Below are positions 3,602-54,370 of a stretch of 64,000 nt of DNA, in pieces. The notes under the pieces are model-generated. The model did not search any database, was not told where the DNA came from, and saw only the letters and a list, made by a program, of their open reading frames with translations. The stretch is taken from NCBI GenBank assembly GCA_002633005.1, contig NMRA01000350.1, positions 255,642 to 319,641 of the forward strand. Reading direction: 5' to 3'. Source of the stretch: Phoronis australis (lineage: Eukaryota > Animalia > Phoronida). Every line of letters begins with the position of its first letter. Positions within the stretch are counted from its first letter, which is position 1. The translations under genes and the position numbers were made by a program.

Positions 3602-3950
3602 TATGTGAGTGATGTGAGCCTGTGGGGTGTTGTGAGATTCTGTGGGAAGTGTGAGCATGTGGGTATTGTGAACCTGTGGGTGTGTTGTGAGGCTGTGAAG
3701 GTGTTGTGAGCATGCGGGGTGTTGTGAGCATGTGGGGGAGTTGTGAGCATGTGGGGTGTTGTGAGAATGTGGGGTGTTGTGAGCATGTGGGTGNGGCATT
3801 GTGAGCCCGGTGGTGTGTTGTGAGTCTTTAGGATGTTGTGATCATATGTGGGGTATTGTGGGCATGTGGGATGTTGTGAGCCTGTGGATGTTGTGAACCT
3901 GTGGTGATGTTGTTAGCTTGTCAGGTGTTTTGTGTCTGTGGAGTGTTGTG
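3602..3950. repeat. Degenerate ~18-bp TG-rich minisatellite (tgtggggtgttgtgagca)n
   Basis: Tandem units are directly visible and explain the spurious His/Thr/Pro-rich ORFs. Confidence 0.9.
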
Positions 3951-7035: not shown

Positions 7036-9519
7036 GTAAGTTAGCTGCTTAGACATTTTAAAGTGCAAATAAGTTAAATAAACACGTAATACTGGTTTAT
7101 TCCCCCCAAGTAAACAGCCTCATTTGCTTACAATAGTAGTTTGTGTGTGAATTGATAATACCAAGACTTTCGAGTTGAAATTGAAAAATTGATACTTCAA
7201 CTAGTATATGCGCCATTTCAGGACAACGATATCTTTAATAAGCGAGACTTTTAAAAGCACGCGAATGCATTTATTAAATTCTAGGTATTTCTATGTAAGT
7301 CCAACCGCATTACTTAAGGCAAATTAATTTGTCGGCCGCCTAGTTTCTTTCTACCAGCCTATCTTATGAGCCAATTTGATGATTAAATTTTTGCGCGTTT
7401 TCATCACCAGCTGAATTTTTCATACATGTTCTAACCATGTAAATACCATTCCTAACAAACACGTAAATATTTTATGGTTTTAATATAACAACATGGCCAA
7501 TACGATTTCTGTGATTACACCTGATGTTTCCCTCGGGCAAAACTCAACAGCCCTCACGAACGATTGTCTTCAATCGTTTTTCATAAAAGACACAAATATG
7601 ACGTGGATGGTTAGTAGTAGTCATTTGAGTGCAAACACAGGATTTATCTAATAGCATTTTGCGCATGCGCATCCCTGGGTTAACAACAAGAGTAATTATT
7701 TTGTTGGCACGCTTTTCAATGACGAGTTTTGGTTTACCTTTCTGTTGCCTTCTCCAGAAGAAATAATACATGTACACGTTCTAAAAAAGAAACGAGTCTT
7801 TGCTGGTTATATTTTTATATTTCGTGGGATCCAGGCTCATTAGGAGCAAGCACACGAATGCACGTGTGCATTATGGCTGATGAAAAATGAAGGAATTTCC
7901 AAATTCTTTTCAGAAAAATACGTTAAGCTGCACTAACGATCTTGCTCACTGGAAACAAAATACTTGAAATAACTACGATTGTTAGAATCCAATTTTGACA
8001 ATTCCAAGTTACGAACAGATGAAAGTCACATTGAGGTGACATCGATTCATGTGCTGAGGAAAACGTGCACATCAAATATTTTTGTACTTTGTTTGTCTAA
8101 GTCGGTATAGTTGTTGTTGTTTTAAAAAATCCGTAACAGTCCACCCAACATTATACCTACTCTGGTGTAAGCAGGTACCACTCAATAATTACTATCTGAA
8201 ATTACGAATGAAATGGATAAAGAAAAACGAATACAGATTGTTAGAGGCACCCTTCGTAACCCTGGTACCAGAAAAAAGGGTTGGGTTTGAAATGATTACC
8301 AGATTAATAAACAGTCACACTCATGATATCAACAGAGGCTTGAGTGAGTTTAGATTTATTTCACCCAGCTTACTGTAATTAAATATATTTTAGTGCATCA
8401 CATGTATCAGATTATCTAGAGTATTGCGTTATGCGATGATATATTGGTTTTAAGCTTATTTTTTATTTTTTACTTCACTTGGTATTCCGTTCTGTAGTTC
8501 ATTTTATTCTCCATATGTTTGCATCTTTTTATTTTACGATCGTATTACCTACTGTTGTTTTATCCCTGTTATCAGTTCATTGTCAGGCCGCGCAGTCGTC
8601 TTTCGATTATGAGTATGTGGTAAATTCCTCGGCTCATTTTCCTTCATCCTCTCATTTTCTGCTCTTACGCATTTTAACTTCAGGACAACTTCCTCATTTT
8701 CCACTTACTGTCCCAAACATCAAATTTTACACAATTGATGAAGATCAAAAGCACCGCTCGGTACATTTGGTTTTCAATAGACGCGTATTTATACCGTCTA
8801 TATTCATCTTCTATGCAATTAGTAACATATTTGACGGTTTGGCATTAGGGATCTTTAGTTGGCTCTCGTTCCATCTTTCTCTAGTAAGTCGCTTTGTTAC
8901 GACACCGGTTGATCGATCTTTTGAAGAATGGTGTCTTTGGGAAAGATTAAGGCGTCAGTCATTCTGGAATAGGTTAACTTCTCCCATAATACAATGTAGG
9001 AAGAGAGAGAGATTGTTTGCCAATACATTGCTGCGCTGGAGAGGGATTACGTACTCATTTAAAATTCCAACTCTTCACTGGAACGTAAGACTCTCATCAA
9101 CTTGCGCACACTTGATTCTAGGATCCAATATAAATGTCAATACATTTTCAATTCCAACTTGACTACAGAACATGGGGAAAACTTGCATGTCCGATATCAT
9201 TTGCAATATTGTTATTTCCTTTAAATGAACGAAAGTGAGGTTGTCGTATATACGTATTCCTATACCGTCTGCTCTCGCACGTTCGTGTCGAAGTAGTTTA
9301 GAACTAGAATGGAATGACGATGATGCGTATTTATTTATTTATACTCCAGAGACATCACAGAAAGAAAACATTAGTCATGACCTAGCAAAAGAAAAAAAAA
9401 GAAATAAGAACATAAAATGAGAAGACAATACACTGTATCTAGGCAACGAAATAAGATAGCAGATACAATGTATGAACAAGTTTGGGTTGTTCAATACTGT
9501 ACTCCACAGTGAAAACGTT

Positions 9520-31415: not shown

Positions 31416-31726
31416 TATGATGCCTATAATGGTGACGAGTGGTGATGGGGATGATGCCTATAATGGTGACGAGCGGTGGTGGGGATGATGCCTATAATGG
31501 TGATGAGTGGTCGTGGGGATGATGGCTATAATGGTGACGAGCGGTGGTGGGGATGATGGTTATAATGGTGACGAGTGGTGGTGGGGATGATGCCTATAAT
31601 GGTGACGAGTGGTGGTGGGGATGATGCCTATAATGGTGACGAGTGGTCGTGGGGATGATGGCTATAATGGTGATGAGTGGTCGTGGGGATGATGCCTATA
31701 ATGGTGACGAGTGGTGGTGGGGATGA
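31416..31726. repeat. 34-bp minisatellite, about 9 copies (gatgatgcctataatggtgacgagtggtggtggg), within a GAT-rich low-complexity tract from ~30985
   Basis: Period of 34 is directly visible (for example 31450 and 31484). Confidence 0.95.
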
Positions 31727-32304
31727 TTCTGAAGATGTTGATGTTAATGGCTGTGACAGTGGTATGAGAATAATTGAAACGACTAGGAACAACTGCGGAT
31801 CAATGGGTTTCAGTTTAATGTGAAGCGATCGTTGAAGTTCTTATTCGGTACATAATCACAGCAAGTGACCGTGTAAAAAGCACGAATGACTTATTGGTAA
31901 TCGACTCTTAACAAAAATACAACACCATTAACAAAGAACCTACACTCTCATGCCAATTCATGTATTGAATTTGTTCGTAATAGGTTACAATGGGTCAGTT
32001 GTTTTAGCCTTTGTAGGTGCATTGATGTTTGTTGTTGTAAAGATAATATGTGATTGTTCTTGTATTATGTACGCTTTGTAGGTCGCAAATAATGCATGTC
32101 CCTATGATTTCCGGTGTAGTACACTTGTCCGCTATCTAAATTGCAAATCAGGTGATGAATATATGGATTGAGCTTTTCACGTTATTTGAGGGGAAGCCAG
32201 AGAGCTTTGCGAGAACCCAGTCTTGCAAAACAATCGTTTTCAATGTATTTTGGAAGCCCGTTCCAGGCATTCATACTCATGCTGTAGATGAGCCAGGTTT
32301 CTTT

Positions 32305-35169: not shown

Positions 35170-36948
35170 CTGTACCAATCGACTTGATGGCAAACATCGT
35201 CTTCCTTGATCGTTTTTTGGGGATGAAAACGCGCAGTAACCACTGTTTGCGTATTTTAGGAAAACGTGTAGTAACCACTGTTTGTGTATTTTTGGAAAAC
35301 GCGTAGTAACCACTGTTTGCGTATTTTAGGAAAACGTGTAGTAACCACTGCATCGGGCCTGCGCTTTTTCTTATTTAACGTTCCAGCTGTGTTTCTTTAG
35401 TGTTCAGTAAGTGCAACAGCTAATTAAGTCGTTCTTTTTACCAACCACATGCGACTTGTCTGATTAGCATCGATTTTCAGATTAAAACCGCACCATGATT
35501 AGTCTTGCTCCGATGTCGCGAGCATGTAGACTTAATGTTCCATTTTAATTTCTGTTCGCAGTACCTGCTATTAGACGCTGTGGCACAGGGGTACTTTATT
35601 TTACAAGTCCTACGGTGACGTACCTCCAATGCGACCACTTTTTGTGCGGAAAATGGAATACAGTTTTGATCGATTAATACATGTATTTATACGATAAGGT
35701 TAAAAAAGTAAAGAAAATTGTTTGTTGCGCTACAAACTGACGTTTCATTAGTAATCTCGGGAGGGGGGTTGGGGGAATGGCATTCGGGGGAATTAGGCAA
35801 TGTATGAACATTTCTTCCCTTCCGTCGCGCTCCACTTTTCATTATTAAGGCGATAACGCACCCGAGTGACGGAATTGTTTTTGAATTTAATTTTGTTCAT
35901 AGCTGCTCTGTCTGTCAATGTATGTTTTCATTTTGTCCTGATTTAAATAGACTTGGATTTTGTCACTTGTTCTTGCTGTTTTATCCCAACGAATTGAAAA
36001 ATATTTTCAGTAAATGGTGCTTACATCTGGCAACGCAGTTGTTTTTATTCAGTGGCGGATCTAGGATATCANCTGCACCAATCGACTTGATGGCAAACAT
36101 CGTCTTCCTTGATCGTTTTTTGGGGAGGACAACGTGCAGTAACCACTGTTTGCGTATTTTAGGAAAACGCGTAGTAACCACTGTTTGTGTATTTTAGGAA
36201 AACGTGTAGTAACCACTGTTTGTGTATTTTTGGAAAACGCATAGTAACCACTGCATCGGGCCTGCGCTTTTTCTTATTTAACGTTCCAGCTGTGTTTCTT
36301 TAGTGTTCAGTAAGTGCAACAGCTAATTAAGTCGTTCTTTTTACCCACCACATGCGACTTGTCTGATTAGCATCGATTTTCAGATTAGAACCGCACCATG
36401 ATTAGTCTTGCTCCGATGTCGCGAGCATGTAGACTTAATGTTCTTTTTAATTTCTGTTCGCAGTACCTGTTATTAGACGCTGTGGCACAGGGGTACTTTA
36501 TTTTACAAGTCCTACGGTGACGTACCTCCAATGCGACCACTTTTTGTGCGGAAAATGGAATACAGTTTTGATCGATTAATACATGCATTTATACGACAAG
36601 GTTAAAAAAGTAAAGACAATTTTTTGTTGCGCTACAAACTGATTTTTCATTAGTAATCTCGGGAGAGGGGTTGGGGGAATGGCATTCGGGGGAATTAGGC
36701 AATGTATGAACATTTCATCCCTTCCGTCGCGCTCCACTTTTCATTATTAGGGCGATAACGCACCCGAGTGACGGAATTGTTTTTGAATTTAATTCTGTTA
36801 ATAGCTTGTCTGTCTGTCAATGTATGTTTTCATTTTTACCTGATTTAAATAGACTTGAATTTTGTCACTTGTTTTTGCTTTATCCCAGCGAATTGAAAAA
36901 TACTTTCAGTAAACGGTGCTTTCATCTGGCAACGCAGTTGTTTTTATT
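35170..36948. repeat. ~880-bp direct tandem duplication (35170-36049 and 36073-36948), each copy containing a 35-bp tandem array
   Basis: Near-identical copies separated by a 22-nt MITE end and an N at 36072. Confidence 0.95.
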
Positions 36949-44041: not shown

Positions 44042-44235
44042 GTGGACTAGCGATATCTGACGAAAAGAAACTTATTAAGAAGCTGATTGGTGAATATCAG
44101 AATGTGGGACTGGTCGGGCGACCCGTGAAGTACTCGAAACAGACCATGAATGTCACATTCGGTCTTGCTCTCATACAAATTCTCGACTTGGACGAAAGAA
44201 ACCAGGTGCTCACTGCTAACTATTGGAACAGAATT
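44042..44235 (+). CDS. nAChR alpha subunit, first constant exon (GLAISDEKKLIKKL…GRPV…LIQILDLDERNQVLTANYWNRI)
   Basis: Cys-loop receptor N-terminal helix, RPV motif and loop D Trp. Boundaries tttcag| and |gtaagt, phase 1 to phase 0. Confidence 0.95.
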
Positions 44236-45207: not shown

Positions 45208-45317
45208 GGTTGGCACGATTATCTGCTGCGATGGAACCCTGAAGAATTTGGAGGTGTCTCGGAGGTCCGTGTACCACCGTCATCCGTTTGGCTCCCTGAC
45301 ATTGTTTTATACAACTA
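45208..45317 (+). CDS. nAChR exon ([37 protein letters not shown]), loop A
   Basis: WxD..L.W.P..FGG and WLPDIVLYN motifs, tttcag| and |gtaaga boundaries, 110 nt, phase 0 to phase 2. Missed by the ORF track. Confidence 0.96.
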
Positions 45318-46183: not shown

Positions 46184-46635
46184 TGCCGACGACCGCTTGA
46201 AGGAGTATCGGGATGCCATGGTCGTCGTATCGTACACCGGTGACGTAATGTGGATACCCCAAGCGATCTACAAAAGCTCGTGTCCCATTGACATAAAGCA
46301 CTTCCCTTTCGACGAGCAGAATTGTAAATTGAAATTCGGAAGTTGGACATATGACGGTTTTGAAGTGGACCTTTTCTTTGAGAACGACGAAAAGATAGAC
46401 TTAACGGAGTACGTTAAAAGTAATGAATGGAACATTCTCGAAAGTCCAGCTGTTAAGCACAAGGACTTTTATCCCTGTTGTCCAGAACCTTTTGTGGACC
46501 TAACATTCTACTTGAAAATCAAGCGGAAGGTGGCGTTTTACAATTACATTCTAATTCTTCCTTGCGTGCTTTTATCGTCTCTCACGCTGGTGCTGTTCTG
46601 GCTGCCGCCGGAATCTCCCGCCAAAATGCAGCTAG
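46184..46635 (+). CDS. nAChR exon: Cys-loop, loop B, loop C (YPCC), M1 and start of M2
   Basis: CPIDIKHFPFDEQNC, GSWTYDG, vicinal cysteines YPCCPEPF, M1 and …LPPESPAKMQL-G. Phase 2 to phase 1. Confidence 0.98.
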
Positions 46636-48562
46636 GTAAGTGATTTAACCAATGCATGTTAATCAGTGATATACATGTACTGCTCCCTTGTAGTTAGTGC
46701 ACTATAAAACAACTCCTGAGTGGTCGCAAATAAGGAACGAGGACGTCAGATAAAGCTTTTATAATTCGTGATAGGCCACTCAGGGCTCTTAGAGAGTTTT
46801 TGATTGGGCATGTACCGCGAAACGCAAAGCTGCCTATTTGGATGGCTTTATTCCCTTTGCTTTGTTTAATTTTGACAAAATTGCGAATAATTCAAGCTCA
46901 GCAAAGAAATTCCACGTTCCAAAGTGTCAAAATACCGTCGCCTCAGCTAATTGTCTCGATGGAAGAACAAACGCACATAACCTTGGTGCTCGAAATCCGA
47001 AATGTAGGGTCAGCTTATCTCTCTGAAATTCATCATACGTACTGTAGAGTGTACAGCAATCATGTCCAAGACCAGATACCTCTTTGGCGAAGAGTGGTTG
47101 GTCAACTGTTGCATTATTTGTTGTCTTTTGGCTTTGGCCTTCGTGCAGGCTACGGATTTCTGTCTGTGATTTCATGTTTTGACATATCTTCAAACTTGTA
47201 GCATTAGTCTGACTTCTAAGTCATCCGTGAGACTGATTTTAGCCAAAAGTCAAAAGACTCTTCGAGAAATAGCCTCTAGGTGGTTTCAATGTACTGACAT
47301 GTATTACTACGTTGAACTAATCACATCAGCGGAAGTTAAATATTAATGGTGGAGTCTGCTCTTAAATGAGTCTTTATGCTGGCAACGAATATTTCAACGG
47401 TTATTGGTTGTTGGGCAGTTTGCTGGCCACTCGCAACCAGGCCACATACATGTATTGTTAATATCGCAATTTACAAACCATTGTGCGTTTGGCCGGATTG
47501 TTCGCGAAAGTCACGCAGCAACCTTCCTGTGAAGACCTTAACCACCTCACTGTCGACACCGATAGAGTGGTGTGCCCTTCATGGAGTCTCGGTTCTCAAT
47601 GAGTCGTCATCTACACCTTAATTGCCTATGTACTGTCAGTAATTAGGCTTGGCACTGACGAAACAAAAGCCAGTGAGGCACTTGATGTACACCTAATATT
47701 GCTACGCGCCATTCAAGGGAAACATTCTTAAAGCTGCCATTTATTGATTACCCGACTAGACTCCATTGAGGTGCTGAAATCAACAGGGGAGAGTTAAGTA
47801 ACGCTAGGACGTAGCTAAAATTTATTCAAAACCCTGTGTTCTCAGATAAAATACTGGTAATATGTCACGTAATCTCGCGAAGTATTGCTTTTTAGCAAGG
47901 TCCTAGCGATACCGAAAAGAGGGCAGGAATCTCAACGGTGTTCAGCGCTAGCGAATAGGGAAAAAATGCACTGCATTGGGCGAGTTGATTTTTGTCTATA
48001 CTAATGGAGGTAGCCACATTGAACCTTTAACCTATAGCACCCCATCGGTGTGCGAGATGTGCAGATGAATTTTCTCTATTTTTGTTCATGTAGCTCAGTG
48101 GTCGATGCTAGGGGGCGCCATGCATCCAAATGGTATATTTCTAACGTATTTGTATAAACCATTTAGTATGTAGCACGTATTTCACGATTTTTGATGTTCC
48201 CTAGATAACATTTTGTCCCGCTTTATCCGTTTTTCAGCCATATTGGAAACGTTCCTGGATATCTTTGAAAGAAAAAAAAAGAGAAAAAAGCAATGATTAA
48301 TACGAACAACTGCATGTTAAAATTTGCTAGGCATCCTTTTTAATAATGAAACAGCCCACAAGACTATACTAACTTACCTAGTACAAAGGCGACTGACATG
48401 AGAGTGTAGCATCCGATTGGTAGGTACACGATTCGATAACAAAAGTTGGTAAGCTTTGAGTACAAATCCTCGTAGTACGCAGCAACAGTGCACCAATAAT
48501 TCAGTTACAGCCCCATCACCTCTAACTTTTTAATGACCGGTGGGTCGCTTTATTTATTTCAG

Positions 48563-48649
48563 GTATGAACATTTTTGTGGCGTTTTTCTTGCTATTATTA
48601 CTACTAACAGAAAACACACCACCGGCGTCATCGTCCATTCCTCTTATAG
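48563..48649 (+). CDS. nAChR M2 exon, variant a (GMNIFVAFFLLLLLLTENTPPASSSIPLI-G)
   Basis: 87 nt, tttcag| acceptor, AG|gtaaag donor, phase 1/1, no stops. Confidence 0.88.
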
Positions 48650-48891
48650 GTAAAGTTCGGCTAGATGAAGTGAGCGTAAAACTTACAAACTGGCATGGTT
48701 TGGTTAACTCATCAATCGTTTGCGTGCACCAATGGAAAACAATGTAACACACCGAAAGCTAGCCGTGCCACTTTGTAAACATAGCTCAAGGGTTGCACAT
48801 GTATTTAGTTTTCTATTAGTGAGTGTGTCTGTGTCTCAGTGTGATTTAGTGGAAAGAGCTGTTCGTGATGTTGCCTTGTTTATATTTTCAG

Positions 48892-48978
48892 GGATGAATA
48901 TATTTGTGGCATTTTTTGTCTTATTACTGCTGTTGGCGGAATCCACCCCTCCGGCATCCGCCTCCATTCCTCTTATAG
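48892..48978 (+). CDS. nAChR M2 exon, variant b (GMNIFVAFFVLLLLLAESTPPASASIPLI-G)
   Basis: 87 nt, ttttcag| acceptor, AG|gtaact donor, phase 1/1, no stops. Confidence 0.92.
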
Positions 48979-49397
48979 GTAACTCAACATTAAAATTGTG
49001 TCCCAAATTTATCATTCTGTTCATCTTTCGTTTTTAATTTTCGAGGCATTGTTTTCTGTCGTAATCCAATTATTGCACTTCCTCAGCTACCAATCCGTTA
49101 TTATCGCATGCTCTTCGTATGTTTATCCTCTTTTTCATTGCACCGTTTCACCCGCCGTATTCTTTGGACTTGACATCACGTAGATCGACCACTACCATAG
49201 TTTTCGGAAGTAGTGCACGTTAACATTTTGTTGTAACTGCAAGTATACCTTAACGAATACGTTCAAGTCATCTTTAAATAAAACCAATCATTTAAAATTT
49301 GCTCGCTGCATGTATCATAATTTACTTGATTTGAAATTACTGGATGTTTTTACAAACACGCTTTCCAAACTTAGCTCAATGCAAAATCGATGTGATT

Positions 49398-49658
49398 CAT
49401 GCGCGCACCCAGGGAGGTGAGGGGATGAGGGGGTCTCGAACGAGCCCCACATTTTGCGAAGTGGGCAAAACGATCCGCCTCAGAGAAACAAATAGCCCGA
49501 GGAAACGAGACAAAAGTCCACTAAAAAGGCGCAGACGCACAGTTCACAGTTTTGAAGGTGGTACTCCGTTTTTTTTAGTCTTCCAGCTTTTTTGTTAGCA
49601 AAAGGTCCACTTTGACAGAAATTCGAGCCCCCCAAACTAAAGGCTGGGTGCGCGCATG
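49398..49658. mobile_element. MITE with perfect 15-bp TIRs (catgcgcgcacccag…ctgggtgcgcgcatg)
   Basis: TIRs are directly visible; 261 bp with a GC-rich interior. Confidence 0.8.
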
Positions 49659-50834
49659 TAATTTGCAGAATTAAACGCACACATGTGCATATAAGTTAAC
49701 AAGTGCTGGGTGCACACGTTGAGGATGCTCACTCTGTGGAATCGGAGTTTGGTAATTTCCAAGTGATGTCATCATGTAAATTCGTGTACCGCACGCGCAA
49801 TTTTGTTTGATAATAATTTACCATAACAGATTCTTGAATGAATTCGTACAAACCATCTCTTCATAATAATGTTATGATATGGTGTACTGTACATGTTTTG
49901 ATAAGAATTTATATTAATGGCTGATATTATTGTTCATGCATGTTTGTTTTCAATCATTATCATTTATTTCTTGTCAATGAGAAATGCAAAATGACCAAAA
50001 GATGTTTTCCATGAATGGTGGTATAAATGACAACCACATAGACAGACTAATAATCACTGGAAATCGGACTAGAATGGACTCACATCAGCTAAAATGGGCT
50101 GGACGAATAAATACAGCCCAACCGATATTTACGTTTTGTCATTTAGTGAATCTACATGTACAAACGCTTCAGGACATCATTCATTTCATCAATCTGTGTT
50201 CAGGATGAATTAGTTTTACCAATCTTATTCTACTATATTCTATAAACGAATTCGAGCGAAGGCAACGCGTAAACGAATACTAGAAACTGAATAGTGTACA
50301 CCTGCATGTGTAGTCAGTTACATTTTCCGAATCTCTATCTATTTTATTTCCTAAGCTGCACTGTGTAGATAACACGCGTTTGAAACACAAAGTATTGCCC
50401 TCGATGAGATAGCCTTGCAACAATCGAGAAAAAAACTTACAAAGCTGTATGCCACGCCACTTACCATGGGCAGCAGACAATGTCAATTACGTTAGTACTA
50501 CTGATTAGAACGGAGATTTCTAAACAAAGCTAGCATTTTGGGCGTGATCACCATTTGTTTTTGTTTTGAAAGTCACTTGGTTGTATACATATGGGTTGTT
50601 TCTGTTGATTTGAAGTTATGTTGCCCAGTTAACATCCTATTTTTCCTTAAAATCAAAATTATTATCTTGTCTTGCAAACAGAAAAAATAATAAGTAAACT
50701 TGATATATACCAAGGCAAGGTCGCATTTTGCATGAGTGTTTGAAGGATCAATGATTGCGTGATAGTCTTACAGTTTAATCTTGTCACTTCGCTTAGACAC
50801 AATGCCTTTTTCTGTCGACACTCAGTATAAGACC

Positions 50835-51191
50835 CAGAGTCTAATCTCTTTACTCGAAATCGAGCTAGTCGAAATTATTTTTGGCATTTTGTATTCTGCC
50901 CTGTGCTCGAGTACATCATCACTGCTCGCGTGAATAACCTTCTAATCCTAGTTTGCACTTAATAACCCCCGCATTAAACCAAAAAGTTCGAGTCTGAAAT
51001 CGAAGACTTGGAGTTTTTACTCGAGTTTATAACTCGAATCTAGGGGTTACAATTGCAAACTAAGGGACTAGAAACTCGTATGCATAAACCATAATGTTCT
51101 CGCGCACAGAATAATCTGGATTTATCTCGAGTTCGCACAAGAGTGGAATGAAAAATGCAATACTAAGTTCGAGTTCAAAGATTAGAGCCCG
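50835..51191. mobile_element. MITE-like element with imperfect TIRs
   Basis: gtctaatctctttactcgaa pairs with ttcgagttcaaagattagag; a related copy lies at 39261. Confidence 0.55.
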
Positions 51192-51875
51192 GTTCCTGAT
51201 GAGAACGTAGCATTTCTTAGCAAACACATTCACCAAGTATCTTGCTCGTGCTTTCGATATTGTTAGCCGGTGTTGTTTTAAAGGAGTTTGCGTGAACCTT
51301 CATTCAACACTTTGTCTAAGTGCTTGTTTTTGGCACTAAGTTTCAAACTTTTTTTGAAATATTCGATTTAAAATACATGTGTTATTACCATCCCATGAAA
51401 ACATGCCCTTATCATACTCCTGACATGCACAGTTGCGCACTACCGGTATACCCATGTGCATAAAAAGGGGCAAACTGTTGTACCCACGTAAAATCATGGA
51501 ACAAAAATTTTGATAAAAATTTTGAATTGTCGAATTTTTCTGCACACCATCGTTTTAAGCATAAGTTTAAAGAATACAGTCTCCACGTTTTCCTCCATAA
51601 CATACTCCTTAATTTTCTGATCAGACTCAGTAGCAATGCCTTTTTCAATTTTTGTTCGATTTCCGGTCGTGTGCAATGATTGAATTTGAGCTCTGAAAAT
51701 GGATATTTTACATCATTGTATGTACTTTCACACAGCCTAGTTCCATTTAGAATCTCACGTCATAAAGAAAGCATTCGTATCAGTGTGAAATAGCACACAT
51801 TAATCAAGTATCACTTGACCACGAGTTGGAAACATACCTGTGTGTTCAATGGACTTTGTATTCCTCTTCTTTTAG

Positions 51876-51994
51876 GTGCGTACTATTGCCTGAATATGAT
51901 TATGATCGCTCTTTCGACCTTCCTGTCAGTCATAGTAATTCAGCTTTACTTCAGGGGGGACAGGGCTACCAGTCTTCCGAGATGGATAAAGCGA
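51876..51994 (+). CDS. nAChR M3 exon (GAYYCLNMIMIALSTFLSVIVIQLYFRGDRATSLPRWIKR)
   Basis: M3 helix and P.W motif, cttttag| and |gtgagt boundaries, phase 1 to phase 0. Confidence 0.96.
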
Positions 51995-53923: not shown

Positions 53924-54370
53924 ATTATGGTAGACGGATTGGCTAAGGTGCTTTGCATGGGAGTAGAGAGTCCAAATGATGATTTAAAACTAGAAGAGGT
54001 TAAGTCACTCGAAGACAAGGAGAGAATTTCAAAGGACCTTAAGACAATGCGTCAAAAGGGAAAAGAGATGAAATACAACAAGTATCAGATGGTGGATCAG
54101 ATGGAGAAACTCAACTGTCGTGCCAACGGACGCTACGATGCAACCCCTGACATGTCGCCAATCCACTTTCATCAGGGTATGGAGAGTGACGTAAAAGATA
54201 TACGGAAAGTTCTGCGGCATATTGTTCAGAAAATGAACGAAAAGGAACGCGTTGCAAAAATACAAAAAGAATGGAAGACGGTTGCGTTAGTGCTCGATCG
54301 AATTTTTTTCATTCTTTACTTGATAGCAATAATCGTGTCGCTGTGTACCATATTTCCCAAAACAGGCTAA
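53924..54370 (+). CDS. nAChR last coding exon: cytoplasmic loop, MA helix and M4 (…EWKTVALVLDRIFFILYLIAIIVSLCTIFPKTG*)
   Basis: EW..VA.VLDR motif, cttttcag| acceptor in phase 0, stop TAA at 54368-54370. Confidence 0.96.
   Translation: MMVDGLAKVLCMGVESPNDDLKLEEVKSLEDKERISKDLKTMRQKGKEMKYNKYQMVDQMEKLNCRANGRYDATPDMSPIHFHQGMESDVKDIRKVLRHIVQKMNEKERVAKIQKEWKTVALVLDRIFFILYLIAIIVSLCTIFPKTG

Follow-up and report, generated by a model that had tools for sequence, protein, structure and literature searches.

A gene for an anion-type nicotinic acetylcholine receptor (nAChR) alpha subunit in Phoronis australis carries two tandem copies of the exon that encodes the pore helix M2, here called exons A and B. 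The best explanation, which we hold with good confidence, is an old tandem duplication of the M2 exon in a gene of the Pro-Ala class, whose two copies are spliced in singly and give two subunits that differ at four positions of M2 and the M2-M3 loop. The pair itself is real and old, and very probably functional. The parts of the gene recognised in the window (the whole 64-kb stretch of DNA analysed) are the following.

44042 to 44235, + strand: constitutive exon with which the mature ligand-binding domain begins (gene model; Pfam PF02931, E = 8.8e-8)
45208 to 45317, + strand: constitutive exon of 110 nt whose end encodes loop A (WLPD) (gene model)
46184 to 46635, + strand: constitutive exon with the Cys-loop, loop B, the YxCC of loop C (alpha type), M1, and the M1-M2 linker (PF02931, E = 6.5e-36; PF02932)
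48563 to 48649, + strand: alternative M2 exon A, derived (L13', T19', E20', N21', S27'; from the sequence and relatives)
48650 to 48891, + strand: intron of 242 nt separating A and B, longer than a steric block needs
48892 to 48978, + strand: alternative M2 exon B, canonical (V13', A19', E20', S21', A27'; from the sequence and 301 protein segments)
51876 to 51994, + strand: constitutive M3 exon (gene model; RNA depth 1.3-6.3)
53924 to 54370, + strand: last coding exon with the intracellular loop, M4, and stop codon (gene model; PF02932, E = 1.2e-10)

A signal-peptide exon is expected upstream of 44042, where a scan gave no convincing candidate. No other protein genes were recognised within the 64-kb window. 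A frame of 240 codons free of stops (8440-9162, + strand) begins with a hydrophobic stretch and matches nothing in Pfam. Minisatellites lie at 3603-3950 (18/55-nt units), 31417-31727 (34-nt units), and 35225-36253 (two 35-nt arrays about 900 nt apart). Short inverted-end elements lie in the intron after exon B (49398-49658 and 50831-51195), and RNA reads with unrelated continuations pile up on them, as expected for dispersed repeats.

Exons A and B are 87 nt each, share the same phase (1/1), contain no stop codons, and lie between intact AG and GT sites (TTTCAG before and GTAA after each exon). Being homologous neighbours, alike in phase and length and with both splice sites preserved, they have the structural features of a mutually exclusive pair. 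The two are identical at 64 of 87 nucleotides and differ by 13 synonymous and four replacement codons (codon 10, L/V; codon 16, T/A; codon 18, N/S; codon 24, S/A). An earlier note on this DNA had given the same exon structure and counts from the sequence alone, and recomputation reproduced them exactly. A branch-point-like CTAAC motif is found at -41 of exon A. Searches by tblastn and HMM from 95 M2 peptides found exactly two M2 exons within the 64-kb window. The repeat formed by the exons is 97 nt long (48557-48653 and 48886-48982) and its likeness ends at the splice sites; the best alignments between the flanks of A and of B span merely 10-13 nt. By the Nei-Gojobori method, A and B differ with pS of 0.76 and pN of 0.09. 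These values indicate an old duplication with both copies under purifying selection, as the earlier note had proposed, rather than a chance likeness or a recent assembly duplicate. Human alpha7 and the bryozoan homologue P0096 align from M1 to M3 without gaps, placing the K of SPAK at 0', and the numbering 13', 19', 21', and 27' for the four replacements is therefore right.

The product of the gene has Neur_chan_LBD and Neur_chan_memb domains above the Pfam curated cut-offs, a Cys-loop, and four transmembrane helices. Exon 46184-46635 encodes the vicinal cysteines (YPCC) of loop C. It also encodes the Pro (-2') and Ala (-1') of the M1-M2 linker, upstream of both A and B; the linker reads SPAK in ungapped alignment with SGEK of human alpha7. 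The best single-copy matches are annelid, brachiopod, and mollusc subunits (70-74% identical), all of them lophotrochozoan Pro-Ala subunits. With a Biomphalaria protein called "nicotinic acetylcholine receptor subunit type B" the upstream exon shares 65% identity, and with trematode homologues 62-64%. In a tree with a single cation-type outgroup, the window gene is nested among lophotrochozoan Pro-Ala subunits. Its linker, its YxCC motif, and its closest kin thus bear out the earlier assignment to the anion type. A chloride-selective nAChR of Lymnaea was reportedly described by van Nierop in 2005. The Pro-Ala motif marks the chloride-type nAChR clade of Lymnaea and Schistosoma, in which, as in the window gene, it lies at the M1-M2 linker and is accompanied by YxCC (Lymnaea chloride nAChR, SmACC-1, and SmACC-2); SmACC-1 conducts chloride (PMC4055736). 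Judged by these motifs, the window subunit probably belongs to a chloride-selective (inhibitory) acetylcholine receptor. In lophotrochozoans, inhibitory signalling by acetylcholine is likely to run through this chloride-type clade.

The B-type combination V13'/A19'/S21' is the commonest state in the clade, found in 142 of 301 M2 segments of stored proteins, and B is 27/29 amino acids identical to the canonical exon. By this count B is the canonical M2 exon of the clade. The A-type combination L13'/T19'/N21' occurs in only three of the 301 segments, all from the bryozoan Watersipora subatra. Exon A is identical at 28/29 amino acids to the Watersipora exon and to the A-type exons of the contig loci L052, L056, and L059. 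Compared with seven bryozoan-like A-type exons, it shows pN of 0.02-0.08 at pS of 0.49-0.95, with 26-28 of 29 amino acids the same.

Metagenome contigs searched with both exons yielded 79 animal loci, of which 63 have one M2 exon, one has none, and 15 have two or three M2 exons in tandem, open in frame and bounded by AG/GT. In ten of these 15 an A-type exon precedes a V13'-type exon, the same order as in the window; the ten come from about six bryozoan-like taxa when grouped by exon identity (L049; L051, L055, and L057; L052, L054, and L058; L056; L059; L060). The recurrence of this ordered pair indicates that it is probably ancient. Among the ten, the flanking exons match Watersipora best in all eight loci that hold them. 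In a tree of the flanking exons (built without stored proteins P0242, P0086, and P0271 and the short loci L043 and L050), seven representatives, six genomic plus the cDNA-like contig L038, join Watersipora with support of 100/98. The window gene is unplaced among lophotrochozoan orthologues in this tree, and a clade of the window gene with the bryozoan genes is neither recovered nor rejected (p-AU 0.229). Two introns that interrupt the large exon of the bryozoan-like loci are absent from the window gene. Both flanking exons are present in 22 loci, with a single M2 exon in 12 of them, two in nine, and three in one. All eight bryozoan-like loci with both flanks are multi-exon, and mollusc-like and annelid-like orthologues with both flanks have a single M2 exon (e.g., L003, L004, L005, and L011). 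The other five multi-exon loci (L042, L043, L044, L048, and L050) are annelid-like paralogues, with V followed by L at 13' in four of the five.

Trees of the M2 exons, based on 29 amino acids or 87 nucleotides only and excluding the duplicates L051, L054, L055, and L058 as well as L043, in both cases have a branch that sets the A-type exons apart (support 79/80 for amino acids and 87/95 for nucleotides). The window exon A groups with the TENT exons at 95/83*. A pairing of A and B of the window alone is not rejected by AU tests (p = 0.087 for amino acids, 0.154 for nucleotides). The duplication would be older than the split of the Phoronis lineage from bryozoans. As for decay in related species, which the earlier note had named as a point to check, the A-type exons are intact and conserved in bryozoan-like loci, and the B-type exons of L052, L056, and L059 are diverged and 6-9 nt longer. 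All three Watersipora RefSeq isoforms carry the A type. Due to these diverged B-type exons and A-only isoforms, B may be minor in some bryozoans, and A looks dominant in those with a diverged B (L052, L056, L059, and Watersipora). An apparent excess of synonymous conservation in exon A (66/156 identical codons, where the M1 exon has 48/162 and the M3 exon 42/131) was set aside, as window B against locus A gave likewise 43/99. L059 (5553-7350) has three M2 exons, two of A type with N or S at the pore-lining 6' and a diverged V13'-type exon of 96 nt.

The earlier note expected A and B to be used one or the other. In relatives this expectation is supported. RefSeq isoforms swap only the M2 exon in at least three of 30 protein clusters, among the members listed (up to 15 in each). 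The Lingula isoforms X1 and X2 (XP_013418082.1 and XP_013418084.1) differ in eight columns, all inside the M2 exon. The same swap is seen in Octopus bimaculoides and O. sinensis (XP_052824820.1 vs XP_052824821.1) and in Mytilus edulis, M. trossulus, and M. galloprovincialis (XP_071128335.1 vs XP_071128336.1). These isoforms are automatic annotations and not studied cases. In the contig L038 an A-type exon is spliced straight to the M3 exon, which the last exon follows, and B is missing. The genomic relatives L051 and L057 (about 90% identical to L038) have B between A and the M3 exon; a B exon in the species of L038 itself is assumed. Some RefSeq isoforms of Aplysia, Octopus, and scallops (P0139, P0296, P0298, P0077, and P0084; e.g., Aplysia XP_035827587.1 and Octopus XP_052824822.1) skip the M2 exon entirely, and may be splicing noise or pore-less subunits.

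For Phoronis australis itself, RNA runs X1 to X3 (about 18-19% of each) were mapped to a region that excludes the upstream exon 46184-46635, and the joints of this exon to A and to B, as well as exon-skip joints, fall outside it. Depth over the M3 exon is 1.3-6.3 in the three runs, eight reads of X3 are spliced into the last exon, and the consensus of loose read ends matches the start of the last exon with one letter different. Over A and B the depth is at most about 2, and no joint of A, of B, or from A to B is among the joints listed. In X3 the depth is 6.3 on the M3 exon, 0 on A, and 0.25 on B, or roughly one read's worth on B as inferred from depth bins; A has none in X2 or X3. In X1 the depth over A is equalled by that over the A-B intron, which indicates unspliced RNA. 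The RNA contig run X4 has no depth on any exon.

The sole hint of use in Phoronis is thus the one read or so on B, which would fit an arrangement in which Phoronis puts one exon, probably the canonical B, into practically all transcripts and keeps the other as a little-used or silent relic of an ancestor that used both. Watersipora, with RefSeq isoforms of one type only, offers a parallel, and the exon 8 variants of insects are used very unequally (PMC1919356). We nevertheless consider this arrangement unlikely. A silent copy would have decayed, while exon A keeps its frame, its splice sites, and its CTAAC branch-like motif and is conserved against bryozoan A exons at the low pN given above; B, for its part, is nearly identical to the canonical exon. 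Alternative use of both exons remains the preferred reading, in which one Phoronis pre-mRNA would take either A or B.

How double inclusion would be avoided is a separate matter. Joined to the flanking exons, A or B alone gives an open frame of 469 amino acids, and the two together give an open frame of 498 amino acids. A frameshift is therefore ruled out as the enforcer, and exclusivity needs a splicing mechanism. All splice sites are GT-AG. No significant or conserved competing RNA pairing or docking sites were found around A and B. A candidate pair of 18 nt, 83% complementary, in which the A-B intron would bind the first part of the upstream intron, has an energy of -20.9 kcal/mol vs a shuffled mean of -17.9 kcal/mol (p = 0.08), and RNA pairing was set aside, since only one of 36 region tests over nine loci had p < 0.05. 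For a 10-nt motif that precedes both exons, the window holds no complementary sequence, and TGCATG motifs have no conserved position. In L049 the A-B intron is 63 nt long with its sole branch-like motif at +18, pointing to a steric block of co-splicing in that taxon. In Phoronis the choice would be set by splicing factors and not by steric block or frameshift.

An open frame through both exons, with a 242-nt intron that gives no steric block and no significant pairing, also fits frequent co-inclusion of A and B; the resulting subunit, one helix longer, would lack function or act as a dominant-negative regulator. A Dimorphilus gene model (CAD5118373.1, one of 258 segments) strings two M2 exons together, and alpha6 of the silkworm is reported to co-include exons 3a and 3b (PMC1919356). 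However, no RefSeq isoform with both M2 exons occurs among the listed members of the 30 clusters, and L038 skips B. Given the four-helix fold of these subunits, a fifth membrane helix would flip the M3-M4 topology. Frequent co-inclusion is very unlikely. One correction to the earlier note is that the reading frame does not bar double inclusion. That the pair is an assembly artefact (joined haplotypes or paralogue pieces) or a recent functionless local duplication is extremely improbable and largely refuted already, since pS is far above allelic difference, the flanks are dissimilar, and separate assemblies of about six other taxa show the two exons in the same order.

If A and B are spliced singly, both variants would stay anion-selective, because the upstream exon common to both encodes the Pro-Ala filter and each keeps the acidic 20'. 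The earlier note had listed selectivity among the properties affected by 13', but a selectivity switch between the variants is unlikely on the same grounds, with only V vs L at 13'. In the M2 helix, a bulkier residue at 13' and polar residues at 19' and 21' more plausibly shift gating, desensitisation, or conductance. The L13'/T19'/N21' form would alter one or more of these properties, and the variants likely differ in gating rather than charge, as far as the residues tell. Mixed pentamers would also be possible. In alpha7, V251 is one of three residues whose change is needed for anion conversion, and it is changed to Thr (PMC6800317, PMC10941285); V251 is 13' when counted from E258 as E20' in PMC10941285. 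The natural pair, with four differing positions including 13' in the pore, offers a ready-made probe of upper-pore gating in an anion-selective nAChR.

A and B are identical at 25 of 29 amino acids, and match human alpha7 at 10 and 12 of 29, respectively. Insect alpha6 is a cation-type (GEK) subunit, and the window gene is of the Pro-Ala type. The residues shared by A and B are mostly specific to the Pro-Ala clade and absent in alpha7, and the duplication is therefore likely to have followed the origin of that clade. By its Pro-Ala motif the gene lacks the GEK filter of an alpha6 orthologue, and by the comparison with human alpha7 its M2 exons probably do not belong with exons 8a/8b/8c. The A/B duplication is likely separate from that of insect alpha6 exon 8, and the convergence suggested in the earlier note appears likely. 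Exons 8a/8b/8c of insect alpha6 cover TM2, were duplicated before the insect orders radiated, and are used unequally (PMC1919356, PMC2064938). Like A/B, they are an ancient tandem duplication of the TM2 exon in an nAChR alpha gene (about 300 My in insects), with variants unequally conserved and used (PMC1919356, PMC2064938). Both A and B keep the acidic ring at 20', whereas insect 8c replaces a conserved Glu (PMC2064938).

Pore-exon choice itself is thus already known from insect alpha6, and such isoforms exist in automatic annotations. Outside insects, and in a chloride-type clade, a pore-helix exon was duplicated, and both copies persist as splicing alternatives. New here are the link to the bryozoan A/B pair with its distinctive signature and the further tandem pairs in annelid paralogues. 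No description of M2 exon choice in lophotrochozoan nAChRs was found in the literature searched. The searched text of the Schistosoma SmACC report mentions no M2 splice variation (PMC4055736), and the main texts of the surveys PMC13174522 and PMC6896357 leave splicing undiscussed; in PMC6896357 the term comes up only in the title of a cited reference. The earlier note's impression that such a pair was undescribed in the lophotrochozoan anionic clade therefore holds for the papers searched but not for public annotations.

The pairs of Lingula, Octopus, and Mytilus resemble A/B in that a Pro-Ala nAChR takes one or the other version of this exon, with V13' vs L13' in Lingula and Octopus and V13' vs I13' in Mytilus. 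Unlike A, their alternative exons lack the T19'/N21' signature and may be separate duplications. In the tree the Octopus gene belongs to a different clade, one of paralogues, and the Mytilus gene looks paralogous by sequence. A broader reading is plausible, and we advance it tentatively: a single L13'-T19'-N21'/V13'-A19'-S21' duplication would have been inherited by Phoronis and bryozoans as a rare genomic character bearing on how lophophorates are related, and would be one of at least four independent pore-exon duplications (lophophorate orthologue, annelid paralogues, octopus paralogue, and mussel paralogue), most of which toggle V vs L/I at 13'. M2 swapping would then be a recurrent tuner of inhibitory cholinergic channels, to which bryozoans would add a second swappable exon changing the Pro-Ala filter. 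The A-type signature, being common to bryozoans, may serve as a phylogenetic marker.

Other exons of these genes are also found in tandem copies. In the bryozoan-like loci L049 (1914-2165) and L057 (4408-4932), tandem copies of the M1 exon end in ESPAK or ESAAK. The copies are identical at 83/96 and 75/96 nt, and those of L049 are about 50 nt apart. They are a candidate second either-or pair, one that would change the Pro of the Pro-Ala motif. A bivalve-like paralogue, L046 (412-3700), has three tandem copies of the 152-aa large exon (loops B and C, and M1) before a single M2 exon, and Ruditapes and Mercenaria proteins of one cluster differ over the stretch of this large exon; L046 is a candidate for a three-way choice of ligand-binding module. 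While the window has a single copy of the short exon before loop A, two Owenia isoforms (P0012 and P0190; CAH1795658.1 and CAH1795657.1) differ only in this exon, apparently another either-or exon in the clade.
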